Shown here: positions 1 to 56,182 of the stretch, in pieces
Position numbering within the stretch: the stretch's first letter is position 1
Layout of the letters: each line of letters opens with the position of its first letter
NCBI GenBank assembly: GCA_004321885.1
Contig: SCQK01000007.1
Coordinates: forward strand, 64,001 to 128,000
Direction of reading: 5' to 3'
From: Patescibacteria group bacterium
Lineage (GTDB): Bacteria; Patescibacteriota; Patescibacteriia; Magasanikbacterales; GWA2-37-8
DNA length: 64,000 nucleotides
Notes under the pieces: generated by a model
The model's input: only the letters and a program-made list of their open reading frames with translations
What the model was told of the DNA's origin: nothing
Databases searched by the model: none
Position numbers and translations under genes: made by a program

Positions 1-128
1 GTAACGCCGAAACGTGGAAAGACGAACAATTAAGAAGAATCGCGCCAAAACCGGTCGCGACAGAGTCGAAAGCCGACACTCCTATTTTCCAAACCCCCGC
101 TTCTCCGCCATCGCCGGTCACTTCTATT

Positions 129-671
129 TTGAATCTATCCGACGATTATTCAACTTATACATACAGCAAACTGGCCAATTCCTGCTCTTCCTATAAAAAC
201 AACATCTCTTCGAGCCAAGTGAGTTTGAGATGCGGAAACTCTTCGGCTCATTGGCGCGTGCATTGGGTTAAAAAAATCAACGTGTCCGGCTTTGACAAAC
301 TGCAAGTAAAGGCCGACCTGGTTTTGGACGACCACACTTCGTTTTTTAGCGAATGCGACGGCCACGGAGTGAAGTATGATAATTATGTTGATTTGATAAT
401 TGTCAATTCAGACCCCAACGCGACATTGAGCGCGGAATGCAATCGCGTCGTGTCAGACGCGGATTGGCCGAAATGCGCCGTCAATTATATTCATCCAACG
501 GCGATAACACATTGCGGCGTGCCCAAATGCGGCACGAGCAAAAGCTGCGACTTTGAGGTTGATGTTGCGGGCCGGGACGCGGTGTACCTGGTTTTCTACA
601 CCACCGACCCCTGGCTGGCTGACATTGAAGGAACCCTCTCTAACGCGAAAATTACTTTGATGTCAAAATAA
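129..671 (+). CDS. hypothetical Cys-containing protein
   Basis: 180-aa ORF with no recognisable motif; convergent with the next gene. Confidence 0.3.
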   Translation: MNLSDDYSTYTYSKLANSCSSYKNNISSSQVSLRCGNSSAHWRVHWVKKINVSGFDKLQVKADLVLDDHTSFFSECDGHGVKYDNYVDLIIVNSDPNATLSAECNRVVSDADWPKCAVNYIHPTAITHCGVPKCGTSKSCDFEVDVAGRDAVYLVFYTTDPWLADIEGTLSNAKITLMSK

Positions 672-672
672 T

Positions 673-2082
673 TTAATATTCAAACGCCCCGACGTCAAAC
701 CCGGCGCCGGCCGGACGCGCTTTGCCGGCAAAATCAACCGGCGGCGCGTCTGCGGCCGCTCCCTTGTCTATAGCCGGCGAGCCCGCAAGCAAACGAAAAT
801 CCGCCGCGGCCGCGTTCACAAACAGCGGGTCGCCTTCAACATAACCGGCGCCCCTCACCTCGTTGTCTTCGGTGTCGGCTTTGTACTCGTGGATTAAATT
901 ATTTTCCACGATAGTTTTCTGCGCCGCGGCGCTCAGCACGGATATTTCAAACGACCGGTTTTGACTGCATATATTGTTTCTAATGCGCACACCATCAGCC
1001 TCGGCGTTGTCCATCGCGATGCACCCGCCCCACTCGCCGCCGTTGTTGTAAAAAGTGTTGTTCGCGACAATGATGTCTTTCATCGGGTGGGGCCCGCCCT
1101 CGTCGCCGTTGTTCGTCACGGTCAGGCCGCGGAATTTATTGCCGTAGCCGATGTTGTTGTTAAAATTTATATTTTCCAAAAGTCCGCCCATTTCCGAAGC
1201 CACTTGATAGCCGTCGCTGTTGGAAATATTATAAACGACATTGCCGTACACTTTAATATTGTAGGTATGCTTCTCCCAGGCGTCTATATATATACCCGCG
1301 GCCGGTATATTATAAATCACGTTTTTATAAATCTTGCCGTTGCGCGAACCATCCTTTACAGTGATTCCCTCTTTATCTGTCGCAGCCGGAGAATCGTGCA
1401 CCTTATTATTAAAAATCGCGAACCCATCAGCGCCGCTTAGAGAAATCGCTTCCTGCATGGGCCCGACATTTGGTCTTACCACTTCATTGCCGCTGATAGT
1501 GATGTCCTGGCTATCCCACCAAACCCCGATACCCGAGGAGCGAGTATTATAGGTATAATTTTTTTCAATGATGACATGCGCGGAACGGCTGACAAAAATA
1601 CCGTTGCTCTCGTCGTCGCCTTTGGCGTTTATTATTCGCAGGCCAGAAACTTTGATATATGACTTGTCCACAATCTCAAACAATCCGTGCTGGTCCGAGG
1701 GCAGGGTGATGGAGGCGCCGTCTATGGTAACTTTTTCTCCCGGGTACGGCTTATAAGTGATATACTTATCGGCTGTTCCGGAATTTTGCGGCAAAACCCT
1801 TTCTTTATACGTACCTTTTCTGATGAGGACAGTGTCGCCGGCTTTTAGCTTTTTCGCGGCGTACGAAATAGTTTTCCAAGGTTTGGTCTTGGTGCCTGGA
1901 TTGGAATTTTTCCCGCCGGGCGAAACATAGTACGTCTTTCCGGTGGCGGCGACGGCAACCGCGCCGTTGGCCGGTTTGGGCTGCAGCACGAAAGAAAAAT
2001 ACAAAATCCCCAAAACGCCGGCGGCTAACAACGCGACACAAAATATGATGGTCTTTTTTTGCATATGATTGTATCTTATCAC
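673..2082 (-). CDS. secreted/anchored right-handed beta-helix repeat protein (pectate-lyase-like fold)
   Basis: N-terminal hydrophobic segment (IIFCVALLAAGVLGILYF); repeated Asn/Gly-rich beta-helix-like units (NNTFYNNGGEWGG, IRNNICSQN, ISGNEV). Confidence 0.55.
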   Translation of the reverse strand: MIRYNHMQKKTIIFCVALLAAGVLGILYFSFVLQPKPANGAVAVAATGKTYYVSPGGKNSNPGTKTKPWKTISYAAKKLKAGDTVLIRKGTYKERVLPQNSGTADKYITYKPYPGEKVTIDGASITLPSDQHGLFEIVDKSYIKVSGLRIINAKGDDESNGIFVSRSAHVIIEKNYTYNTRSSGIGVWWDSQDITISGNEVVRPNVGPMQEAISLSGADGFAIFNNKVHDSPAATDKEGITVKDGSRNGKIYKNVIYNIPAAGIYIDAWEKHTYNIKVYGNVVYNISNSDGYQVASEMGGLLENINFNNNIGYGNKFRGLTVTNNGDEGGPHPMKDIIVANNTFYNNGGEWGGCIAMDNAEADGVRIRNNICSQNRSFEISVLSAAAQKTIVENNLIHEYKADTEDNEVRGAGYVEGDPLFVNAAAADFRLLAGSPAIDKGAAADAPPVDFAGKARPAGAGFDVGAFEY

Positions 2083-2116
2083 AGAAGCAAAAAAGAGTAA
2101 ATGTTTCCCGCTTTCA

Positions 2117-2144
2117 TTGACTATCGCCCAATTTTTGCTATAAT
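2117..2144 (+). promoter_or_regulatory. sigma70-like promoter for tRNA-Ser
   Basis: TTGACT-16nt-TATAAT ending 9 nt before the tRNA 5' end. Confidence 0.5.
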
Positions 2145-2153
2145 ATCGCCGAT

Positions 2154-2245
2154 GGAGAGGTGGCCGAGTTGGCTGAAGGCGGCAGGTTGCTAACCTGTTG
2201 TAGGGCCTTAAAATCCTACCGTGGGTTCAAATCCCACCCTCTCCG
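2154..2245 (+). tRNA. tRNA-Ser (anticodon GCU), type II with long variable arm
   Basis: acceptor GGAGAGG/CCTCTCC; anticodon loop TTGCTAA; T-arm GTGGGTTCAAATCCCAC; long variable arm; 92 nt. Confidence 0.85.
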
Positions 2246-2365
2246 CTCAATGAGATGGAATTGAACGTTTGAGAACAGTGCTTGGAATGCGCGTTTATGC
2301 GCTCTTTCCTGCACTTTCAGCGTCACTGATTGAATAGAGACTGGGACTTCGAACCCACGAGGTGA

Positions 2366-2593
2366 TCAGGGCACTTCATCGAGGAATGGCACCTCTATCT
2401 GTCCACCGTCTGGGCTGATCGCGCCGACGCGCCACCCTTCACGCTTCCTTTTCAACATCCAACGATAGACCCGCACAGCGTCGTAGACGCCCTGTGTGAG
2501 CGGTTTTTCTCCGGAATGTGTGAGTTCTTCAGCCTCGTTCTGTTTGAGCCGAAGGTGAAGATCTATTGCCTTCTTGTCAGTCTTCATGGGCAA
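2366..2593 (-). CDS. hypothetical small basic protein (island cargo)
   Basis: 75-aa ORF in the GC-rich island; no clear motif. Confidence 0.3.
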   Translation of the reverse strand: MPMKTDKKAIDLHLRLKQNEAEELTHSGEKPLTQGVYDAVRVYRWMLKRKREGWRVGAISPDGGQIEVPFLDEVP

Positions 2594-2784
2594 AGACTTC
2601 TCCTAGAGTTATGTAGATCTCTCGATCGTAGTTCCAAGAAGTACCGGAGTCAAGCATATTTGTCACACCGGTGCGCGATGTGCTCCCTTGTGGGGGAGGA
2701 AATGGAACGCGCATGTTCGAAAATGTTCTTGACACATCCAATGCGGTTCCGGTACGGTAATACAAACAACCAAACGGAGGAGTC

Positions 2785-3678
2785 ATGGTCGGCAAGGTCG
2801 CGATCTTCGGGGTGTTTATGGGAACGTTCGCCGCTGGTTGTGGCGAACCGCTCGGCGGGAGCGATGACCAGGACGTCGAACAGGTCGTGCTTCAATATCT
2901 CCGGGATCACGATCCGGGCATCACGCGAGGGTCGCCGGAGTACATGGTCTTCCTTAAGGACATCCTGTGGGGTTTGCACCCCGACCTCTTGAATCACAGT
3001 CGCGGGACGAAGATTGGCGAGTTCGCCGCGGCGTATATTAGCAATGCTGTAGCGCCGCTATTGGATGATGAACAAGCTCCGAGGCCGACCATCCAGTCAC
3101 AGACTTCCGCCCTCACCAGCGGCTTCAACCGCAACGCCGTGGTGAACTATGCATATGCTTGGGCGAGCAACGGCGGCAAGAAAAGAAACGGTGCTTACGT
3201 CAGTTTCGACAATGACTGCACGAATTTCGCCAGTCAGGCGATCAAGGCCGGTGGAGTCCCGGCAATTGGTAGCGGCTCGTGCGGCTATGAGGAGACGACC
3301 TGGGAGTGGTACTCCCAGTTCTCCTTGGCTTGGTGGTGTCTCAAGAAGTGGGCCGTTTCCACCACGTGGGTCAGGGTCTCTGAGTTTTACCAGTACCACG
3401 TGCAGAACAAGCGTAACGCATCGACTGGCCTCTACTACCTTGGCAACCTGAACTCCTTGCGGTCTGCAGCTCGTCCGGGCGACATCATTCAGCTGCAGTT
3501 GGCTTCCAGCGGCACCCTGTTTCACTCGATGGTCGTGACCAAGAAGGACAGCACCGGCGAGATCTATTGCACCTATCACACCGGTCCCAACGGCTACGAT
3601 GTCGTTGACAAGCCGCTGGCCTCCATCGCAGCCAACTACGGGAACACGAGCTACTATCGTCTCAACAGGTTTGACTAG
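2785..3678 (+). CDS. putative amidase-domain (CHAP/NlpC-like Cys peptidase) lipoprotein
   Basis: GGAGG RBS 6 nt upstream; lipobox-like TFAAGC; 'NDCTNFASQAIKAGG' Cys motif typical of the putative amidase domain family. Confidence 0.55.
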   Translation: MVGKVAIFGVFMGTFAAGCGEPLGGSDDQDVEQVVLQYLRDHDPGITRGSPEYMVFLKDILWGLHPDLLNHSRGTKIGEFAAAYISNAVAPLLDDEQAPRPTIQSQTSALTSGFNRNAVVNYAYAWASNGGKKRNGAYVSFDNDCTNFASQAIKAGGVPAIGSGSCGYEETTWEWYSQFSLAWWCLKKWAVSTTWVRVSEFYQYHVQNKRNASTGLYYLGNLNSLRSAARPGDIIQLQLASSGTLFHSMVVTKKDSTGEIYCTYHTGPNGYDVVDKPLASIAANYGNTSYYRLNRFD

Positions 3679-45972: not shown

Positions 45973-46546
45973 GTGTTACGCCTTCAATCGTACCACTGAC
46001 GGTATGCCCGTTTTTCTTCAGCATATCCACAATTTTTTTCGCCTCAGCCGGATCTGTGACAAAAAAACGTTCTGCCGGCCTATTTTGCGGGTTTCCTGAT
46101 AGGCTTGTGTTAAGTTTGGAATTTTGGAACAATTCTTTGAATTTCGGAACATTGAAATCCGAAATATTTTTTAATTCAAAAATTTTTGACGTTTGCGAGT
46201 TTTTGAAAACAGACGGATTGGTTAAATTCAACATTTCATTTTCAAATTCAATCAGGCCCTTTGTCGCTTCGGCTGATTTTAATGTCGCCTTCTTGGCCAA
46301 CTCCCCTTTTTCTTCAACGCTGAATTTTGATCTGCCGAAGGAATTAACTACGTTTTGTTCGGTTTCCTGGACTTTGCCGCTAATCTGGCCCAGCAGTTTA
46401 ACGTAATCTTTCGGGTTTACGGGCTTAACATCCATTTTCTGACCGGCTACTGTCGCGAACCAACTGCCGCTCACAGTCGTTTCAGCCGCTTTTCCCGGCG
46501 CTCTTTCCTTTTCAAATTTTTTAATCCCTTCTCCTCTCTCCAGCAT
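45890..46546 (-). CDS. hypothetical protein downstream of yidC
   Basis: 218 aa, Lys-rich; overlaps the previous ORF by about 80 nt, so the start is uncertain. Confidence 0.35.
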   Translation of the reverse strand: MLERGEGIKKFEKERAPGKAAETTVSGSWFATVAGQKMDVKPVNPKDYVKLLGQISGKVQETEQNVVNSFGRSKFSVEEKGELAKKATLKSAEATKGLIEFENEMLNLTNPSVFKNSQTSKIFELKNISDFNVPKFKELFQNSKLNTSLSGNPQNRPAERFFVTDPAEAKKIVDMLKKNGHTVSGTIEGVTLVEIGNKGLAICAAEISDKEPYGKSSS

Positions 46547-46555
46547 AAAATTTTC

Positions 46556-47314
46556 TTAAACCACCTTTCCTTCGATGACATTGGGCGAAGCCGGTGGATT
46601 TTTCTTGAAGAGATAAACTTGTTGAAGAGCCATCAGCAGGGTGCTGAAAAACCAATACAAAGTAAGACCGGCCGGCAAACTCATGCCGATAAGCACGGTC
46701 ATCAGCGGCATAAAATACAGCATCTGCTTATTCATCATGCTCATCATGGCTTCATCTTTGCTGCCGACTCCGGCGCCGGCCGGAGGCTTCTTGCCCTTGT
46801 TCATTGTCTTGGCCTGCCAAAACTGGGCCGCGCCGGCCAATACCGCCAAAATCACATTGGGCTTGGCCATATCAAAAAACCCGAAAGAAATCGGATTGAT
46901 TTTTCCCGGATTGGACACGAACGGATAAAGCCATTGACCCAAGTTGGCCGAAACCAAAGCATCGCGCAGAACCATGTACAAGGCGATTAAAATTGGCAGT
47001 TGGATAAGAATCGGCAAACACGAAGCGAACGGGTTCACTTTGTTGGTTTTGTACAATTCCATTATGGCCTGGGTCTGTTTTTGCTTGTCATCGGCGTACT
47101 GTTTTTTTATGGCCTCCATTCTCGGCTGAAGCTCTTGCAAAGAGCGCTGGGCCCTGATGGATGAAGTGGTAAGCGGCCACAAAGCCAGCCGCACCAAAAT
47201 CGTAATCGCCAAAATCACCAGACCGACGTCGTGGCCCGGCAGAATATCATAAAGGCCGACAAAGATATTGAAGATGGGCTGGTAAAGTACGGTGCGAAAG
47301 AGGGTGGAAAACAT
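46556..47314 (-). CDS. yidC: membrane protein insertase YidC (short form)
   Basis: YKTNKVNPFASCLPILIQLPILIALY. Confidence 0.8.
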   Translation of the reverse strand: MFSTLFRTVLYQPIFNIFVGLYDILPGHDVGLVILAITILVRLALWPLTTSSIRAQRSLQELQPRMEAIKKQYADDKQKQTQAIMELYKTNKVNPFASCLPILIQLPILIALYMVLRDALVSANLGQWLYPFVSNPGKINPISFGFFDMAKPNVILAVLAGAAQFWQAKTMNKGKKPPAGAGVGSKDEAMMSMMNKQMLYFMPLMTVLIGMSLPAGLTLYWFFSTLLMALQQVYLFKKNPPASPNVIEGKVV

Positions 47315-47318
47315 ATTT

Positions 47319-48560
47319 TTATTCTTTAGTTTCTTCTACTGGCTCTTCTTTGCTTTCCCCAACCTTTTCCTCAATCGGTTCAGCCGCCGCTTCTTCGCTG
47401 GACATTTCCTGAGTGCCGCCCTTTTCTTTCACATTGATGCCCCAGCCCGTAAGCTGGGCCGCCAGGCGCACGTTTTGCCCGCCGCGGCCAATGGCCAAAG
47501 AAAACTGGTCCGGCGCGACATACGCCGAAGCCGTTTTGCTGGCTTCGTCCAATTCCACTTCCGCCACTTTGGCTGGAGACAGCGCGTTGGCAATATAGTT
47601 GACCGGACTTTCGCCATAACGGATGATATCTATTTTTTCTCCGCCCAGCTCTTCTATTATAGTATTGATGCGTCCACCGCGCTGGCCAATGCACGAACCG
47701 ATGGGGTCTATCTGCTCGTCGTTCGCGTCCACAGCCACCTTGGAACGGTAGCCGGGCTCGCGCGCGATGCCTTTTATTTCAATCAGTCCTTCTTTAAGCT
47801 CGGGAATTTCCTGCTTGAAAATTTCCCGCACCAAACCCGCGTCGGCGCGCGATAAAATTATCTCGGGTCCGCGCGGCCCCATCTGCACCGACTGCACCAA
47901 AAATTTCAGCTTGCTCCCGGAACGATAAAAATCGCGGCTGTTTTGCTGTTCCGCGGGCATAATGCCAGTAACTTTGCCCAAATCAACCAAAGTTTTTCTG
48001 CCTTCCACGCGCTGAATCGTGCCGACAATTACCTGACCTTCCTGACCCTTGAAGTCGTCAAACACCATACTGCGCTCGGCTTCGCGCACCTTTTGGATTA
48101 TCACCTGCTTGGCGGTCTGCGCGGCCATGCGTCCGAAATCGCCCCCAGCCTCCAGCTCAATTTCCAGCACCTCGCCGGCCCGGGCGCCTTTTTTGATTTT
48201 TTTCGCCTCCGAGAGCATCATTTCCAGCTTGGGATTAAAGCGCGGCAAATCAGCCACTTCTTCCTCGGTGAGCTCGCGGCCTTCCTCTTTGGCCTTTTCA
48301 CGCCGCTTGGTCAATTCTTCCTGGGCCGCGACCAGCGCCTCCTCGGCAGTATCTTCCACCACGATTTTCACGTCCCACGCTTTCATATCGCCGGTCTCGG
48401 GGTCAAATTTCACCTTGATGTTCTGTTGTTTGTTGCCAAAATCCTTGCGATAAGCCGCGGCCAGCGCCACTTCTATGGCCTCAAGCACCGCCTCGTAGGG
48501 CAGATTTTTTTCCTCGCACAAAAATTGTATGGCCTTGCTGATTTCCGACATAGTTGTCAT
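47319..48560 (-). CDS. nusA: transcription termination/antitermination factor NusA
   Basis: N-terminal domain + S1 + KH architecture, 413 aa. Confidence 0.9.
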   Translation of the reverse strand: MTTMSEISKAIQFLCEEKNLPYEAVLEAIEVALAAAYRKDFGNKQQNIKVKFDPETGDMKAWDVKIVVEDTAEEALVAAQEELTKRREKAKEEGRELTEEEVADLPRFNPKLEMMLSEAKKIKKGARAGEVLEIELEAGGDFGRMAAQTAKQVIIQKVREAERSMVFDDFKGQEGQVIVGTIQRVEGRKTLVDLGKVTGIMPAEQQNSRDFYRSGSKLKFLVQSVQMGPRGPEIILSRADAGLVREIFKQEIPELKEGLIEIKGIAREPGYRSKVAVDANDEQIDPIGSCIGQRGGRINTIIEELGGEKIDIIRYGESPVNYIANALSPAKVAEVELDEASKTASAYVAPDQFSLAIGRGGQNVRLAAQLTGWGINVKEKGGTQEMSSEEAAAEPIEEKVGESKEEPVEETKE

Positions 48561-48588
48561 TCCCCCGACTTAGTCGGGGGAATCCAGT
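48556..48588. repeat. family-B palindrome abutting the nusA start codon
   Basis: identity. Confidence 0.85.
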
Positions 48589-48667
48589 TATATTAAATTA
48601 AAGAGCCCTTCTTCCGAAGCGCTCTCTTAACAATCAAACCTTGGAATTAAGCATACACCTGTCTGAT

Positions 48668-49306
48668 TCAAATGTCAAGGGCCTTGGCGATATTTTGCGG
48701 CACATGGTGCGGGGTTTTGCCAAATACAACCACTTCATCGCCCGCTTCCAAAAAATTATATAATTTTTCCGCGTTTTTGTAAGCGATGTTCACACAGCCG
48801 TGACTCATGGGTTTTTTGCCAAACTGGTTGTGCCAATACGCGCCGTGGAGATAATAGTGCCTTTTGAATTCCAAATTCCACTTGGTATTGGGCAGGTTGT
48901 AACCGGGCCCGATATAATTCACCACCGGGACTTTGCGCATTATCGTGAATTTGCCCTTGGGCGTGGGCATGCTAACCAGACCGGTGGAAACCGGCATGGC
49001 GCCGATTTTTACATTATTGTAAAAATAATATAACTGCTGTTTGGCCAAATCTACCTCCACGCGGCGCGCGGAGGTTTTTTCTTTGTCCGGCGACAGCGGG
49101 TCGTGTCCGGTGTAAACCTCTTGTCCGTCTTTATAGCCGTCGGCGTCCGAGTCCGGATTGTTCAAATCCGTGCCCAAAGATGTCTCCAGCGCATCGGACA
49201 GGCCGTCTTTGTCTATATCCAAAACGGCCGCGAAAGTGGAGATGGGCAGTAGAATAAAGAATATAATGATTAATATTGTGTACCGCATAAAATTTTCAAT
49301 TACCAA
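48668..49306 (-). CDS. L,D-transpeptidase (YkuD) with N-terminal TSP3-like Ca-binding repeats
   Basis: DIDKDGLSDALE and DSDADGYKDGQE repeats; catalytic SHGCVNI. Confidence 0.75.
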   Translation of the reverse strand: MVIENFMRYTILIIIFFILLPISTFAAVLDIDKDGLSDALETSLGTDLNNPDSDADGYKDGQEVYTGHDPLSPDKEKTSARRVEVDLAKQQLYYFYNNVKIGAMPVSTGLVSMPTPKGKFTIMRKVPVVNYIGPGYNLPNTKWNLEFKRHYYLHGAYWHNQFGKKPMSHGCVNIAYKNAEKLYNFLEAGDEVVVFGKTPHHVPQNIAKALDI

Positions 49307-49365
49307 TGACCAATTTCCAATAAATGTTCAATATCCAATTCCCGATGTCAAAATTTGACATTTGA
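49290..49365. repeat. inverted copy of the 44893-44960 repeat
   Basis: about 85% identity by eye. Confidence 0.7.
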
Positions 49366-49396
49366 ACTTTATTATTGATTTGACATTTGTAATTTG

Positions 49397-50290
49397 TCAT
49401 TTCATAATTATATCTCCAATTTCGTCCGTTCGTAAAATTTCCGCGGCCGCACGTTCTAATTTTTTCAACACTCGCAAAGAGGGATGACCGTACCTATTTT
49501 TTCCCACGGAAATTATCGCTTTATCCGCGTTTACGGCTCGCAAAAACTCGGCGCTGGTGGAACTATCGCTGCCATGATGCCCGACTTTCAAAATATCGGA
49601 CCTCAACGCTGTACACCCCTCCCCTATTAGGGGAGGAACAGGGGGAGGGGTATTTTGGCTAGAACAATACTTCGCCAGCAACGCCTGCTCCAGCGGTTCC
49701 TCCATATCGCCGGTAAACATTATAGTCGTACTCGCTCTGGAAAGCCGGAAAACAATTGAACGATTGTTATAATCCCCATCTTTTGTATCTATGCCCAGGG
49801 CCGGGTCCGGGGCCAAAAAATTCAGCTCTGAACCGGCGAACGCCAGCTCTTTCGGGCCGCTTATCACGCTTGCAACCGCCCTCTCTTCCTGCTGGTATCT
49901 GTACCAAACCTGCCAGTACGCGTCAAATTCTTTCTTGGCTCCATTGGTGATAATATTTTTTACCTCGTATCTTTTTAAAACATCCGCACAGCCGCCGTAA
50001 TGGTCCAGGTCAGGATGCGTAATCAGCAAATAATCAATGGTGCGGTCGTAAAACGGCAGATACTTGCCCAGTTTAGTCAGCACTTTGCGATTGGGTCCGC
50101 AATCCACCAGCATTTTTGCGCCGTCATCAAACTGTATCAGCGCCGAGTCGCCCTGACCCACGTCAAAAAAAATAACGCGAAAACCTTTTTCCGCGAAAAA
50201 AAACAAATTAAAAAGCAAACCGAGAATTATTATCAGGCAACCAACCAGGGCCGAAACTACTTTCTTGCGCATAAAATCTGATTCACCCAC
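49397..50290 (-). CDS. MBL-fold hydrolase corresponding to the ComEC C-terminal domain (stand-alone, TM-anchored)
   Basis: FFDVGQGDSALIQ...DCGP...ITHPDLDHYGG...VGHHGS; an in-frame GC hairpin at 49612-49650. Confidence 0.65.
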   Translation of the reverse strand: MGESDFMRKKVVSALVGCLIIILGLLFNLFFFAEKGFRVIFFDVGQGDSALIQFDDGAKMLVDCGPNRKVLTKLGKYLPFYDRTIDYLLITHPDLDHYGGCADVLKRYEVKNIITNGAKKEFDAYWQVWYRYQQEERAVASVISGPKELAFAGSELNFLAPDPALGIDTKDGDYNNRSIVFRLSRASTTIMFTGDMEEPLEQALLAKYCSSQNTPPPVPPLIGEGCTALRSDILKVGHHGSDSSTSAEFLRAVNADKAIISVGKNRYGHPSLRVLKKLERAAAEILRTDEIGDIIMK

Positions 50291-50928
50291 TGTTCGTTTT
50301 CTTTGACAAAAATTTCTTTTTCCACGCCAAAAGATAGCTCTTCCAAGAACGCGCGGATTTTTTCCGGACGATGATAATATGATTCAATGAGCACTTCCAC
50401 CCCGCCGGTTTTCACGAGCGGCGGGTCTTTTTGGTTGATATTGGTCACCACAAAAATTCCGCCGTCTTTGAGCACGCGATAGACCTCGTCAAAAAACCGG
50501 CGCGGATCTTTTAGGTGCGCGATAAGAAAAGCGGCCAGCACGATGTCAAAGGTTTCGTTTGCAAACGGCAAATTTTCCGCGTCGCCCACCACTGTCGTAA
50601 TGTCATACTGAATTTGTTTCATTATCTCCGGTCGCAAAATTTTTCGCTTCAGCATCTCCAGCATCTTGGGCGAGATGTCCAAAGCGGTCACGCACGCTCC
50701 CCGCTTGGCCAAATACAAAGAGGCCCGCCCGGTGCCCGCGCCGACATCCAAAATTTTTTTGCCCGCCACCACACCAAAATTTTTAGTGTGGTGGCCGGAC
50801 ACGTCGCCGAGCATGGAAAATAATTTTCCCTGTTCAAAACTGTTCAGGTATTTTTCTTTTTCATCGTAATACTTGGCCGCCAAATTATATCCTTCGGCCG
50901 ATGACAGAACCTGTATTTTTTTGGTCAT
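50257..50928 (-). CDS. class I SAM-dependent methyltransferase
   Basis: ILDVGAGTGRASLYLAKRG motif I; a family-D palindrome in frame (50765-50800). Confidence 0.7.
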   Translation of the reverse strand: MTKKIQVLSSAEGYNLAAKYYDEKEKYLNSFEQGKLFSMLGDVSGHHTKNFGVVAGKKILDVGAGTGRASLYLAKRGACVTALDISPKMLEMLKRKILRPEIMKQIQYDITTVVGDAENLPFANETFDIVLAAFLIAHLKDPRRFFDEVYRVLKDGGIFVVTNINQKDPPLVKTGGVEVLIESYYHRPEKIRAFLEELSFGVEKEIFVKENEQWVNQILCARK

Positions 50929-52463
50929 AGATGTTTACCCCTCCCTAACCCTCCCCTTATAAAGGGGAGGGCAATAATAATATACAACAATATCGTCATC
51001 CACCAGCTGATTCGTATTTCCAGCGCGGCCCAGCCCTGTTTTCCAAACCATTCCACTAACATTATAACATACCCAAGTCCGACGCCAACAATCCAGGCCA
51101 CTATCTGTCCCAAAGGAAAAAATATGAAACCGAGCATGACCGCGGCGAATCCAAAAAGCATCAGCCACGGGATAATCCACAGCACCAGCAAATTCACGAG
51201 CGGCGCAACGATAGAGAGGCGGCCGAATTGAAACAGCATCAAAGGCAAAGTGGCGATGATGGCGGAAAGGGTTTGCACCAATGTTTGAAAGAAAAAATTA
51301 ATACTGTCATTGCGAGGAGCCGGAAGCGACGAAGCAATCCCAAGCGATAAATATACGAGTCCCAAAGTCGCTAAAAAAGACAGTTGAAACCCCGCGTCCC
51401 ACACCAGCACGTACGGATTAAAAAGCAACATCAGCGCCGCGGTCAGCGCCAGCACATTGCCCACGCGCGACAAGCGACCCATTTGTTGCGCCAGCAAAAC
51501 AATCACGCCCATTATTCCGGCGCGCACCACCGAAGCCGAGGCGCCGGTAAAGAGCACGAATAAAATTATGCCAACGACCACGGCCCAAAACGCGCGAGGG
51601 CGCGACAGCCCGGCCAGAATAAAAAAACTCATCAGCGCCAAGGCGATGATACTAATGTTGTATCCGGATATGGCGATAATATGAGTGATGCCCGAACGAT
51701 TAAAATCCTCCAGCAGCTCCGTCGGCAGGCCGCTACGCGCGCCGTAGAGCAGTCCGGCCATCAAACTGCTCTTCGGCTCTGGCCAAAGTTTGTCCACCTG
51801 ATTCGCGACAGCCGATTTAAGGCGTAACATGTCATTGCGAGCGACCGTAGGGAGCGCGGCAATCCCATTCTTTGCAAGGGATTGCTTCGTCGTTTCACTC
51901 CTCGCAATGACAGGATTCCCGCACACCGACCAAATCCCATAGCGCGCCAAATACTGGTCATAGCGAAATCCGTCCGGGCTCGCTTTTGGCTCTTGCAATA
52001 CACAAGACAAATTCAACTCCTCTCCATACTCATAGCGCGGATACAGTGGCAGCCAAAAAATAATTTTACCGGAAATATTTTTTGGACAAACAAACGACTG
52101 CCCCGCGCAACTTTTTACTTTCGCCACGTATTTCACGTTGCTTATCCCCGCTTCCGGCTCTTCGCTTACAGCCGCCGTCACTTCCATTTTCTCGCCGTTG
52201 TAATATTTGATACTGCTCGGCGTGATTTTCGGCACGCTGATTAAAAAACGCAAGCCGCCCAAAATAAAAAACAACGCGCAAAGCAGGGCGAAGCGCCAAA
52301 CTTTTTTCTGCCACAGCATTACGGCGAAAAAAAGCGCGGCAAACGCCGCGATAAACAAAGGAAACTGCCAATCACTATTTTCCTGAAGCGAAAACAAACT
52401 CACGCCGGCTATAAAACAAAAGCAAAACGCGAGAAACGTTTTGCTTTTAGAGTGCATTGTCAT
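50925..52463 (-). CDS. comEC: ComEC/Rec2 competence channel protein (N-terminal + competence domains)
   Basis: IIAISGYNISIIAL ... SASVVRAGIMG ... GFQLSFLATLG; start placed at MTMHSK (52463), because the longer ORF call would overlap leuS by 220 nt; two family-A elements in frame. Confidence 0.7.
   Translation of the reverse strand: MTMHSKSKTFLAFCFCFIAGVSLFSLQENSDWQFPLFIAAFAALFFAVMLWQKKVWRFALLCALFFILGGLRFLISVPKITPSSIKYYNGEKMEVTAAVSEEPEAGISNVKYVAKVKSCAGQSFVCPKNISGKIIFWLPLYPRYEYGEELNLSCVLQEPKASPDGFRYDQYLARYGIWSVCGNPVIARSETTKQSLAKNGIAALPTVARNDMLRLKSAVANQVDKLWPEPKSSLMAGLLYGARSGLPTELLEDFNRSGITHIIAISGYNISIIALALMSFFILAGLSRPRAFWAVVVGIILFVLFTGASASVVRAGIMGVIVLLAQQMGRLSRVGNVLALTAALMLLFNPYVLVWDAGFQLSFLATLGLVYLSLGIASSLPAPRNDSINFFFQTLVQTLSAIIATLPLMLFQFGRLSIVAPLVNLLVLWIIPWLMLFGFAAVMLGFIFFPLGQIVAWIVGVGLGYVIMLVEWFGKQGWAALEIRISWWMTILLYIIIALPFIRGGLGRGKHL
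51831..51911. repeat. family-A palindromic element in frame inside comEC (a half copy at 51305-51341)
   Basis: encodes ...IAALPTVARNDM... Confidence 0.8.
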
Positions 52464-52474
52464 TTTAAACACGC

Positions 52475-55012
52475 TCACACAACTATACTCACCAACTTTC
52501 CTTTCACGTAAATCACTTTCTTGGGTTGTTTGCCTTCCAGCCATCTCTGAATTTTTTCGCTGGCGAGCGCGCGGCTCTTCGCCTCTTCTTCGGAGATTCC
52601 CGCCACCACTTCCAAAGTGTCGCGCAACTTGCCATTCACCTGCACGGCCAGAGTGATTTCTTTTTCTTTGGCCAGCTCGGGGTCGTACTTCGGCCACGGT
52701 TCAAATGTGATGGATTTTTTATGTCCCAATAGCGACCACAACTCTTCGCACATGTGCGGAGCGAAGGGCGAAAGAATTTTTACGAATAATTCAAAATTCG
52801 CGATGGAAATTTTTGCCTGCTTTGAAAATTCATTACTCAATTCCATCATTTTCGCTATGGCCGTATTAAATCTCATCGCTTCAATATCTTCGGTGACTTT
52901 TTTGATTGTTTGGTGAAGTAGCTGCGTCATGCTGTCATTGCGAGGAGCCGAAGGCGACGTGGCAATCCCTTTCTTTGTTTGGGATTGCTTCGCTTCGCTC
53001 GCAATGACATTGAGCCCCCACACCCTCTCCAAAAACCTACGCACCCCTATCAATCCATTCGTATCCCACTCCACGGCCTGGTCAAACGGCCCCATGAACA
53101 TTATATACGTGCGCAAAGAATCCGCGCCGAATTTTTCCACCATTTCGTCCGGGTTTACCACGTTGCCTTTTGATTTACTCATTTTTTCTCCGCCTTTGGC
53201 TAAAATCATGCCGTGGCTGGTGCGTTTTTTGTACGGCTCACGCGTGGGCACAGCGCCGATGTCAAACAAAAACTGATTCCAAAAACGGGAATACAACAAA
53301 TGTAGAACCGTGTGCTCCATGCCGCCATTATACCAATCCACGCCGCCTTCGCCCGGCTTCGCGGGCTTCGGCGGGCAAAGCCAATATTTTAGCTTTTCCA
53401 TTGAGGCCAATTTCTTATCGTTTTTCGGGTCGCAGTAGCGCAAAAAATACCAACTGCTTCCGGCCCAATTCGGCATGGTGTCTGTTTCGCGCCGAGCCGG
53501 GCCGCCACATTTCGGGCATTTTGTTTTCACCCATTTTTCCATCGCGGCCAAGGGCGATTCGCCTGTGTCGGTCGGCTCATATTTTTTCACTTTCGGCAAT
53601 TCCAAAGGCAAATCTTCTTCCGCCAGCGGAATCCATCCTGGATTCAATCGCTCACCATCGTTTGGAAATTGGAAATTGGAAATTGGAAATTCCGCTTGTT
53701 TTTCGCACGCGGGACAAAAAACAAGCGGGATGGGTTCGCCCCAATAGCGCTGTCGCGAAAACACCCAATCGCGGAGTTTGTATTGCACTTTTTTCTCGCC
53801 AATCTTTTTTTCTTCCAGCCACTTCATTATTTTTTCCATCGGCTCGGGCACGATTTCCTTTATCGGCAAATTAAATTTCTTGGCAAACTCACTGTCGCGC
53901 TCGTCGTGCGCGGGCACGGCCATAATGGCGCCGGTGCCATAACCGGCCAAAACATAATCCGCTACCCACACCGGAATTTCCTTACCCGTGGCCGGGTTAA
54001 TCGCTTTGATACCCTTCAATTCCACGCCTGTTTTCTCTTTTTGAAGCTCTGTCCTCTCTAAATCCGATTTTTTCTTAGCTGATTCAACATATTTTTTTAC
54101 TTCGTCTATATTTGGAAATTGGAAATTGGAAATTGGAAATTTGAGGAGCGAAGCGACGAGTTCATGTTCGGGCGCGACAACCATGTACGTGGCGCCGAAG
54201 AGAGTGTCGGGGCGAGTGGTGAAGACCTCAAGCACACTGTCATTGCGAGGAGCCGAAGGCGACGTGGCAATCCCTTTCTTTGTTTGGGATTGCTTCACTT
54301 CGTTCGCAATGACAAATTTAATCATCGCGCCTTCGCTTCTGCCAATCCAATTTTCCTGCTGGACTTTTGCGCGTTCAATATAATCCACCTCTTTCAAGCC
54401 CTCCAGTAATTTATCCGCGTACTTGGTAATCGCCAGCATCCATTGCTCCTTATTGCGCCGCTCCACCGGCGTACCACAGCGCTCGCACTTGCCGTCCACC
54501 ACTTCCTCGTTGGCTAAGCCGATTTTACACGACGGGCACCAGTTTATGGGCATGGCTTTTTTGTAAGCCAAACCGTGCTTGAAAAGCTGTAAAAAAATCC
54601 ACTGGGTCCATTTGTAATATTTCGGGTCCGTGGTATCCACCTGCCGCGACCAATCAAAACTTAAACCGAGCGATTTTAGCTGGCGCGTGAAATTGGAGAT
54701 GTTTTTTTTCGTCACCTCGGCCGGGGGTTTGCCGGTCTTGATAGCAAAATTTTCCGTCGGCAGGCCGAAAGCGTCAAATCCAATAGGATACAAAACATTG
54801 TAGCCCTCCATGCGGCGCTTGCGCGAAATAATATCCATGGCCGTGTAGGCGCGCGGATGTCCCACGTGCAAACCCTCGCCGCTCGGATACGGAAACTCAA
54901 TCAAAGAATAAAACTTCTTTTTTTTCTTATCTTCTTTAACCTCAAAAGTCCCGTTCTCTTCCCAAAACTTCTGCCACTTTTTTTCAATTTTTTTCGGGTC
55001 GTATTTTGGCAT
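52475..55012 (-). CDS. leuS: leucine--tRNA ligase
   Basis: HVGHPRAYT (HIGH) and KMSKS motifs, 845 aa; in-frame family-A elements twice ([20 protein letters not shown] duplicated) and (GGAAATT)n runs twice. Confidence 0.9.
52934..53009. repeat. family-A palindromic element in frame in leuS
   Basis: copy at 54239-54314. Confidence 0.85.
53663..53691. repeat. (GGAAATT)x4 heptamer microsatellite in frame in leuS
   Basis: second run at 54107-54140; encodes [10 protein letters not shown] twice. Confidence 0.85.
54239..54314. repeat. family-A palindromic element in frame in leuS
   Basis: near-identical to 52934-53009. Confidence 0.85.
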
Positions 55013-55013
55013 A

Positions 55014-55790
55014 TTATTTAAACAACTCCAATAATTTTTTATGCAAAACCGGATTGGCGACTATAATATCACACTCGCCTCTCTTCCACTCCTCTCCAAA
55101 ACTGTTTGTCCATTTGGCTCCGGCTTCGGTGGCGATAACATACGGCGCCAAAAAATCATGATAAAAACCGGCGTTGGTCACGACCGCGTCTATGCGGCCC
55201 GCGGCCAAATGGCACATGGTTAAAATTGTCCCCATATTATGTAGCCAGCACCCGGTGTCGCCGTTTATATTATTCCAAAAACGCACATAATCCTTAAATC
55301 TTTTTTGCCCGTTTCCGCAACCCACCGCGCCCTGGCTGAAAATCAAAAAACAATGCTCCACCTTATCGTAATTTCCAACTTTAATCCGCTCCCCGTTCAA
55401 GTACGCCCCCTCGCCTTTTTGCGCCCAAAACAATTCATCATTCATGGCATCGTAAATCGCGCTCAAGTATGGCGTTCCATTTTTTGTCAGGCCGACCATC
55501 ACGCACCACATCGCCACATGGTTGGCGAAGTTACGTGTGCCGTCTATTGGGTCTATCACCCAGGTATGCTCGGCCCCCGGATTTATTTCCTCTTTTCGTT
55601 CTTCGGAAATTATTCCGTGGTCCGGATATTTTTCCAAGATTTTTTCTATCAAAAATTTCTCCACTTCCGTGTCCGCTTCGGTAATTACGTCCGACGGATT
55701 TGATTTGACGCCGCTTTTGACCCCTTTCAAATAATATCCCTTGGCCAAATACCCGGCTTCTTTAATGGTGGATTTTACAAATTCAAGCAT
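55014..55790 (-). CDS. inositol monophosphatase-family protein
   Basis: [12 protein letters not shown] motif. Confidence 0.75.
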
Positions 55791-55895
55791 ACTTTATACC
55801 CCACCCTGTGTCCCTCCCCTAAAAGGGGAGGGGAATGTTTGCGTGCCTACATTTTATCGCAAACAGGGCTAAAAATCAAATTACGCCCGGATAAA

Positions 55896-55924
55896 TTGAC
55901 CTAACTGCCCAGTTCGTTTATACT
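55896..55924 (+). promoter_or_regulatory. sigma70-like promoter (TTGACC-17nt-TATACT)
   Basis: well-spaced hexamers on the plus strand in a minus-strand gene neighbourhood. Confidence 0.5.
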
Positions 55925-55930
55925 ATTGCT

Positions 55931-56182
55931 AAGCGTGGTGTGCTGTCTGTCGCTTATCAGCGGCTGAAAGCCCCACACAACACTCCAACGAGGAGGAACA
56001 ATGAAAGTCGGCAACAGAGCAGGCCCGGCCCAGAGCCGAGCCAACAACACGCGCTGATCGCAGAAGCCAACCGCCTCTTCGGGGCAGGAGGTGAAAATGC
56101 ACTGGCCGTGACAAACACGGACGGCGTAGGCACTGTGACGGAGCAGGACCAGGGGGCGGTCTCGACGACGCCCCTTTTTTTA
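55931..56182 (+). ncRNA. candidate small RNA or micro-ORF transcript (GC about 62%)
   Basis: promoter, then about 250 nt containing SD-ATG micro-ORFs (56001-56057 encoding MKVGNRAGPAQSRANNTR; 56097 encoding MHWP), ending in a GGGGCG...CGCCCC-T7 terminator at 56152-56182. Confidence 0.4.

Follow-up and report, generated by a model that had tools for sequence, protein, structure and literature searches.

The window analysed here is a stretch of 64,000 nucleotides from a Patescibacteria group bacterium (GenBank assembly GCA_004321885.1, contig SCQK01000007.1, positions 64,001 to 128,000 of the forward strand). In this window, comEC, the gene of the DNA-uptake channel, is present as two pieces with another gene between them. 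Three open reading frames (ORFs) are packed on the minus strand within positions 49397-52463, and all three are real as annotated (Table 1): ComEC-N, with the N-terminal and competence domains of ComEC; a methyltransferase (MTase); and a stand-alone nuclease with the metallo-beta-lactamase (MBL) fold. The three proteins, whose genes we call the triad, are identical to deposited proteins of a Patescibacteria metagenome-assembled genome, on a contig of 214,539 bp.

Table 1. Features of the split comEC locus; coordinates are positions in the window.
Feature	Position	Strand	Description or basis
ComEC-N	50925-52463	-	ATG 52463 to TGA 50925, 512 amino acids (aa); DUF4131 and Competence domains, through transmembrane (TM) helix 10
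MTase	50257-50928	-	ATG 50928 to TAG 50257, 223 aa; class I, S-adenosylmethionine (SAM)-dependent, Methyltransf_11 type
MBL nuclease, stand-alone, ComEC type, with N-terminal signal-anchor helix	49397-50272	-	291 aa; alternative GTG start 50290
ATGA overlap of ComEC-N stop (TGA) and MTase start (ATG)	50925-50928	-	sequence
16-nt overlap of MTase 3' end and probable MBL start (ATG 50272)	50257-50272	-	sequence; NCBI model P0121
Last TM helix of ComEC-N (WWMTILLYIIIALPF), equivalent to TM10	50961-51005	-	sequence; AlphaFold2 (AF2) model of P0348
N-terminal TM anchor of MBL, equivalent to ComEC TM11 (N-in, C-out)	50192-50260	-	MRKK and a 23-residue hydrophobic stretch
SAM-binding motif I of MTase, LDVGAGTG	50728-50751	-	D61, G63, G65 and G67 invariant in 25 orthologues
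Metal-binding motif of MBL, H-P-D-L-D-H	50000-50017	-	ligands invariant in orthologues
GC hairpin (CCCTCCCC-loop-GGGGAGGG)	50949-50971	-	inside the last 15 ComEC-N codons, 20 nt upstream of the MTase ATG
Second GC hairpin, in frame in the MBL ORF, adding the peptide TPPPVPPLIGEGC	49617-49649	-	an extra stretch compared with solved ComEC MBL domains
Hairpin with 18-nt arms, in frame in MTase	50762-50798	-	coincides with an 11-aa insertion within SGHHTKNFGVVAG
Copy of the 78-nt palindromic element, in frame in ComEC-N	51829-51906	-	repeat search; half copy at 51301-51341

The first-pass annotation had the N-terminal and competence domains of ComEC end at 50925, as the ORF does, and had an MTase ORF overlap it by 4 nt, which the ATGA in the sequence bears out. 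It also described a TM-anchored MBL ORF ending at 49397, as we find, with a start at 50290 and a 34-nt overlap with the MTase gene. This start needs revision: ATG 50272 is likely to be used rather than GTG 50290, because the NCBI model begins there and because the MSRKK of a homologue, the one homologue N-terminus that was compared, resembles the MRKK of the window protein. The NCBI gene model of ComEC-N starts 27 codons further upstream, at 52544, and yields 539 aa (P0241).

ComEC-N matches DUF4131 (PF13567, 64 bits, cut-off 31.6) and Competence (PF03772, 173 bits, cut-off 23), and comprises three N-terminal TM helices, the oligonucleotide/oligosaccharide-binding (OB) fold corresponding to DUF4131, and the competence channel domain through TM10. 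It aligns with residues 51-438 of the ComEC of Neomoorella carbonis (30bt) and with residues 225-485 of 9vc6, and its channel motifs align to the solved structures. Among the best 120 homologues, all but two are about 500 aa long and have no MBL domain. The equivalog profile TIGR00361 (ComEC_Rec2, cut-off 190 bits) stands for three domains in a single polypeptide; in the window, as in over 60 relatives, the ORFs are separate, and the two halves from the window score only 70.3 and 117.2 bits.

MBL supplies the part that ComEC-N does not have. Its match to TIGR00361 covers positions 412-663 of the 663 (E=6e-34), it also hits a ComEC nuclease domain that was crystallized by itself (9ic4, E=3e-20), and its residues 20-290 align to residues 523-784 of a full-length solved ComEC. 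The N-terminal anchor, MRKK-VVSALVGCLIIILGLLFNLFFFA, falls just before ComEC residue 532 in the chain; the beta-lactamase construct made by the authors of the structure spans residues 532-801 (PMC13539106). The metal ligands H86, D88, D90, H91, D189, H232, H233, and H263 are invariant in 30 stand-alone orthologues, and the best 120 MBL homologues are all stand-alone, mostly of about 285 aa. Four cysteines (C58, C95, C203, and C220 in the window numbering) are also invariant in the 30 stand-alone proteins, a pattern compatible with disulfide bonds in a domain outside the cytoplasm; C203 and C220 lie on either side of a variable loop that in the window bears the hairpin insertion.

The point of breakage can be located from cryo-electron microscopy (cryo-EM) of full-length ComEC. 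It has 11 TM helices, three of them before the periplasmic OB fold; between TM9 and TM10 lie two non-spanning helices flanked by two short beta strands, the second of which precedes TM10; and a short cytoplasmic helix separates TM10 from TM11, with the MBL domain in the periplasm (PMC13539106). We compared this description with the AF2 model of a natural ComEC-N+MTase fusion, P0348, which has a mean predicted local distance difference test (pLDDT) of 89.5 and a predicted template-modelling score (pTM) of 0.79. In the model, a beta-rich block at residues 108-199 corresponds to the N-terminal OB fold, a second short strand lies at about residue 483, the last TM helix occupies residues 489-504, and MTase begins six residues later. 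As modelled, the last helix corresponds to TM10, because the second short strand precedes it as in the cryo-EM description. In the window protein, the helix WWMTILLYIIIALPF leads into IRGGLGRGKHL, a basic tail of the kind that a cytoplasmic end should have. With this tail in the cytoplasm and the MBL ORF starting at TM11, the break falls after TM10, in the only cytoplasmic loop between the channel and the nuclease. The MTase gene thus sits where the TM10-TM11 loop would be encoded, and the enzyme requires cytoplasmic SAM. Judging by the sequences, both ComEC halves look functional.

The same interruption is found in dozens of relatives, as emerged from the survey of ComEC architecture that the first-pass annotation had called for. 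The survey was entered mainly through MTase, with five loci from species genomes, 80 from metagenomes, and several more by exact look-up; 82 loci remained after removal of duplicates. The metagenomes were scanned with an alignment of the family-specific C-terminal half of MTase. The scan of species genomes with the full alignment was dominated by the generic SAM-motif pattern and yielded only five orthologous loci, and none of the 75 generic methyltransferase loci from it had ComEC or MBL nearby. ComEC-N lies directly upstream of MTase on the same strand in 61 of the 64 testable loci, and the MBL gene lies downstream of MTase in 64 of 66. Adjacency within the triad (95-97%) exceeds that of the flanking genes in the same loci (40-82%): the gene before ComEC-N is LeuS in 33 of 40, MBL is directly followed by YkuD in 19 of 47, and NusA comes within the next 2 kb in 21 of 33. 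Hence, the triad is retained more faithfully than the background synteny, though this background is high. Spacing within the triad varies across more than 60 independent assemblies. Two loci entered via ComEC-N instead of MTase carry the same triad. We found no close relative with a fused ComEC and the MTase gene elsewhere.

Four loci depart from the pattern. One (L156) is a probably chimeric metagenome contig in which, within positions 1-3388, high-GC sequence containing a TonB-like gene runs into the final 94 codons of an MTase orthologue. Another (L157), a contig of 1.5 kb, shows no MBL match in the stretch of about 590 nt that follows MTase. In L115, an ABC transporter gene lies upstream in place of ComEC-N, and MTase and MBL are still adjacent; in L160, MTase follows a large ATPase-like gene and neither ComEC piece is present. 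Other loci keep the triad in altered surroundings, with a histidine kinase and a response regulator upstream, with AbiEii upstream, or with a PDDEXK gene on the upstream side and genes for PilM, a pilin, and a prepilin peptidase (PilD) on the downstream side.

MTase is a well-defined enzyme in its own right. It matches Methyltransf_11 (PF08241) with 100.4 bits against a cut-off of 21.2, and the best 120 homologues are about 202 aa long. Orthologues are 65-78% identical to the window protein over the aligned columns, with a mean column identity of 67%; this conservation is about that of NusA and YidC and above that of either ComEC half. Besides motif I, the acidic residue at the end of beta2 (D84) is invariant, and the family has motifs of its own, an N-terminal helix GYxLAxxYD...YLNSFE and C-terminal TNINQKxPP and ESxYHRPE. 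The AF2 model (pLDDT 83, pTM 0.86) shows a seven-stranded Rossmann-like fold and has more than 1,500 methyltransferase matches in PDB. The nearest PDB sequences are phosphoethanolamine N-methyltransferases and uncharacterized Methyltransf_11 proteins; the nearest folds are the bacterial phosphatidylethanolamine N-methyltransferase PmtA, UbiG, and other small-molecule methyltransferases, with scores that lie too close together to point to one substrate. Every family-specific NCBIfam score falls far short of its cut-off; in particular, the phospholipid/phosphoethanolamine N-methyltransferase profile NF045882 gives 52.6 against 390, and the alignments cover mainly the Rossmann core. The name UbiE/MenG quinone methyltransferase, given to some orthologues by the Joint Genome Institute (JGI), is not borne out, with scores of 76 against 158 bits for TIGR01934 and 73 against 327 for PRK00216.

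Taken together, the sequences indicate that the locus most likely encodes a functional split ComEC with an MTase gene at the fission point. ComEC-N would supply the external OB fold and the channel for single-stranded DNA (ssDNA), ending in the cytoplasm just past TM10, and the MBL ORF would supply TM11 and the external nuclease degrading the non-transported strand. The two proteins presumably reassemble in the membrane. MTase is a strongly conserved class I SAM enzyme, predicted to be cytoplasmic and to act on a small molecule, a lipid, or a protein, and probably not on DNA. The arrangement probably arose once, in the ancestor of a clade of Magasanikbacteria-like Patescibacteria, and has been kept since; the named members of the clade are mostly Candidatus Magasanikbacteria.

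In the window, the chain of start/stop overlaps, ATGA and then 16 nt, probably couples translation of ComEC-N, MTase, and MBL. The first-pass annotation had taken these overlaps as a sign of a coupled three-gene unit rather than decay. The unit itself stands, given its conserved order in more than 60 assemblies. The overlaps carry less weight as a sign of coupling, since in this genome tight spacing is the rule and not peculiar to the triad: leuS and comEC are 11 nt apart, nusA and yidC 4 nt, and leuS and its upstream gene 1 nt. Moreover, opposite-strand genes interrupt the triad in some relatives. A dihydroorotate dehydrogenase gene, pyrD, is inserted between MTase and MBL in two loci (L097, 4236-5498; L101, 4261-5394), and a second, unrelated class I methyltransferase gene lies between ComEC-N and MTase in a third (L096, 2757-3497). 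Therefore, co-transcription or co-translation of all three genes is not obligatory.

As to what MTase does there, we lean slightly towards an autonomous enzymatic role, with the enzyme tied to DNA uptake mainly by position and expression. The MTase family exists outside comEC. An exhaustive profile search retrieved only 42 cluster representatives at E<1e-30, and we read the context of six of the more distant full-length members. One of them, P0361 (47% identical, from Magasanikbacteria), is in a triad, and the other five (P0362, P0364, and P0366, about 47% identical; P0378 and P0382, 35-37%) are not next to comEC; the wedged position is therefore the trait of one clade. The distant members L171, L172, and L173 have no partner gene in common; their neighbors have no Pfam family and share nothing. 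A recJ gene lies one or two genes from P0378 and P0382 (L171, 2257-3945; contig of JGI 3300075153), and this proximity is probably a matter of synteny shared among related organisms, but may also be another connection with the processing of ssDNA.

Several observations weigh against an MTase that is a mere passenger. In-frame fusions of ComEC-N and MTase occur in four loci of two lineages (L001/L002 and L165/L166), with MTase starting 3-8 residues after TM10, essentially without a linker, and with its own ATG kept. Such fusions show that a membrane-tethered MTase at the cytoplasmic face of the channel is tolerated. Their recurrence, the junction at TM10, the stronger retention of the triad than of its flanks, and the pTM of the fusion model all fit a physical or functional partnership better than pure passenger status. 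Translational coupling cannot be the general cause of triad retention, and the way the survey was entered, with only four loci reached via ComEC-N, also has to be counted here. A fusion of MTase with MBL, and hence a three-way fusion, is absent from the 64 loci holding both genes.

A partnership could take the form of a dedicated cytoplasmic subunit of the split ComEC, docking at the TM10/TM11 face in place of helix CH1 and methylating a partner at the channel exit, such as ComFC, DprA, ComEC itself, a lipid head group, or a nucleic-acid end. We regard this as the main rival explanation, possible but clearly less probable than an autonomous role. It would account for a gene placed exactly at the position of the cytoplasmic loop, for the faithful adjacency and the fusions, for the ordered junction in the fusion model, and for conservation at about the level of NusA and YidC. 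It would also agree with the top fold neighbors, as PmtA and UbiG act at the membrane surface. However, most distant relatives whose context was read manage without comEC nearby, as does the orthologue in L160 without ComEC or MBL and that in L115 without ComEC-N upstream. In addition, genes on the opposite strand have entered the triad, the fusions require only the loss of one stop codon, and the pTM comes from an unpaired alignment and is weak evidence of docking. A more definite version, in which MTase is a true subunit of a two-piece ComEC translocon, tethered at TM10 (covalently so in the two lineages) and chemically modifying, at the channel exit, imported ssDNA at its 3' or 5' end, a protein that handles it (ComFC or DprA, for example), or the lipid around the channel, seems rather improbable. 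If it is true, DNA import in nucleotide-scavenging Patescibacteria would be coupled to a methylation step without counterpart in model competence systems.

The first-pass annotation had suggested that the enzyme could modify incoming DNA or a protein partner. In the first case, MTase would methylate the ssDNA leaving the channel, marking or protecting it. The position beside the channel gene invites this reading, as does a match to the PADLOC profile mad2 (99 bits), the only PADLOC match of the window MTase; Mad2 itself is predicted to serve the MADS defence system as its N6 DNA methyltransferase (bioRxiv 10.1101/2023.03.30.534895). However, the match is non-specific, because Methyltransf_11 proteins unrelated to it reach 72-166 bits in the same region, as does a two-domain protein of about 520 aa, and about 235 N-terminal positions of the profile are unmatched; we therefore do not accept it as evidence of DNA methylation. 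Membership in MADS, which would have mad2 together with mad6-8 in one operon, is not supported either: ComEC-N and MBL, the sole neighbors scanned, match no MADS profile, and the flanks are leuS, the YkuD gene, nusA, and yidC. The MTase has no motif IV of the form (D/N/S)PP(Y/F/W), from which its substrate class was to be judged: beta4 (residues 127-132) is followed by FLIAHLKD (FLIxHLKD in the family), and the only conserved DPP (168-170) lies beyond beta5, where the next residue is L, Q, or E and not an aromatic one. There is no PCQ motif, and the orthologues of about 202 aa consist of the catalytic core only, with no target-recognition or DNA-binding domain. No DNA-methyltransferase family is among the 23 Pfam families matched or the best 25 listed of the 67 NCBIfam families, and the 50 top-ranking fold matches listed all act on small molecules, lipids, proteins, or RNA; none is a DNA methyltransferase. 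Given the missing motif IV, PCQ, and target-recognition domain, sequence and model indicate that MTase is not a DNA methyltransferase and that its substrate is probably a small molecule, a lipid, or a protein. Methylation of the incoming strand is thus very unlikely, the more so with distant relatives living away from comEC.

It could also be argued that MBL is an independent hydrolase, for example of defence or metabolism, that is only by chance a neighbor of a ComEC whose nuclease is genuinely gone. Partial matches to Avs1a and 6A-MBL in NCBIfam and to LmuA, RTasMBL, and Avs1a in PADLOC point that way, and so does the literature on the candidate phyla radiation (CPR), which treats ComEC as a protein without the MBL domain. 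Pimentel & Zhang (2018) assigned such proteins to a "DC" architecture that has lost the nuclease domain (PMC6299819); Meheust et al. (2019) found the ComEC-MBL fusion to be essentially absent from CPR genomes, with six exceptions only (PMC6744442); and a structural paper of 2025 stated that ComEC orthologues "lack" the domain (PMC12455585). Against this, the best matches of MBL are by far the C-terminal part of ComEC_Rec2, over 252 positions, and the solved ComEC nuclease domains, its TM helix stands exactly at the position of TM11, the gene is found downstream almost without exception, and the metal ligands, invariant, are of the ComEC type. We consider an unrelated hydrolase highly improbable. 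Finally, the unusual look of the locus, in a genome that does carry many small in-frame insertions, is all that could suggest an artefact or a decaying gene, and this has practically no chance of being true: as the same three separate ORFs, with variable spacing and varying flanks, recur in more than 60 independent assemblies, with catalytic and channel motifs kept in both halves and a complete and conserved MTase, frameshift, assembly error, pseudogenization, and local rearrangement are excluded.

The triad is part of a long co-directional minus-strand run, in which it is preceded by leuS and a gene upstream of it and followed by genes for a YkuD L,D-transpeptidase, nusA, and yidC; YkuD was assigned by Pfam, and leuS, nusA, and yidC via homologous loci. 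Within 46000-56000, no Rfam match, riboswitch or other RNA, was found, and terminator-like sites were not above chance. The use of TGA as a sense codon (code 25) was rejected because TGA closes both leuS and the MBL gene, whose products align with homologues up to their last residues. Type IV pilus genes are neighbors of the triad in some relatives. In L175-L177 (1-3996), the genes upstream of it encode pilin-like N_methyl/Laminin_G_3 proteins, a histidine kinase, and a response regulator; in another lineage, in L086 (6719-9709), it is followed by genes for PilM, a response regulator, a pilin, and prepilin peptidase, and then for DNA ligase.

The genes of the region carry repeats and in-frame insertions. 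The GC hairpin CCCTCCCC/GGGGAGGG has eight copies in the window (11442, 12320, 12914, 13311, 41341, 49617-49649, 50949-50971, and 55812), compared to none expected from shuffles. The 11-aa insertion in MTase is present in none of 24 aligned orthologues, and a second insertion found only in the window protein is at about residues 100-110. A palindromic element of about 78 nt (TGTCATTGCGAGG...GGCAATCCC...GGGATTGC...CTCGCAATGACA) stands in frame in coding sequence, in ComEC-N and twice in leuS (52932-53009 and 54237-54314, copies 97% identical); an exact-pattern search for it came back empty because the copies differ. Similar palindromic elements, likewise in frame, are known from Rickettsia. In leuS, a tandem repeat with a 7-nt unit, (GGAAATT)n, is also in frame at two places (53661-53691 and 54111-54141), where the coding strand reads PISNFQFPN, and related copies fill the spacer between MBL and ykuD (49300-49409). 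In L086/L087 (1-3004), LeuRS is 1131 aa long and has Pfam matches to NUDIX and alpha/beta-hydrolase lying between its synthetase domains. LeuRS of several relatives likewise aligns piecewise, owing to large insertions near residue 389 of the window protein.

Surveys of ComEC score CPR and Patescibacteria as nuclease-less, which bears on whether one strand is degraded during uptake and on transformation as against nucleotide scavenging. For the clade described here, "nuclease lost" should be corrected to "nuclease split off", with its own TM11 anchor. The break lies in the one cytoplasmic loop that is peripheral to the channel in the cryo-EM structure, and amounts to a natural experiment suggesting that ComEC tolerates fission there. 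The conserved MTase, occasionally fused to ComEC-N, is a testable candidate for an accessory factor. If it is only a passenger, it would be the second case, after comEB, of an enzyme gene held in a competence operon by expression coupling. We rate the combination of a separate TM11-MBL protein and a wedged MTase as a new variant of the known ComEC system because neither is mentioned in PMC6299819, in PMC6744442, or in the full-text literature on ComEC, competence, and CPR taxa that we searched.

Known systems resemble the locus in part. With Mad2 of MADS, MTase shares the mad2 profile match, which is generic, and the scanned neighbors lack MADS profiles. With PmtA (8ys9), UbiG (4kdc), and the phosphoethanolamine N-methyltransferases of plants and Plasmodium, it shares the class I fold and the SAM motifs; however, identity in structural alignments is only 15-23%, and the N- and C-terminal motifs of MTase are found in its own family only. 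In the comE operon of B. subtilis, comEB, a dCMP deaminase gene, is likewise an enzyme gene without an evident transport role that is located in an uptake operon and overlaps the gene after it. Transformation does not need the ComEB protein, but ComEC is made only if comEB is translated (bioRxiv 10.1101/2020.12.30.424838). The differences are that comEB lies between comEA and an intact comEC and belongs to another enzyme family, and that in the window it is the overlaps that suggest coupling. Taken by itself, ComEC-N of the window has exactly the DUF4131+Competence architecture of the MBL-less "DC-type" ComEC that the surveys give as typical of CPR, although here the nuclease is not lost but encoded two genes downstream as a TM-anchored protein. 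Canonical ComEC/Rec2, as in N. carbonis (30bt) and B. subtilis, has the OB fold, the channel, and MBL in the same order, with the same predicted topology and the same nuclease metal ligands. The canonical protein is one polypeptide, while that of the window is two, broken between TM10 and TM11, with the gene of an unrelated MTase in between.

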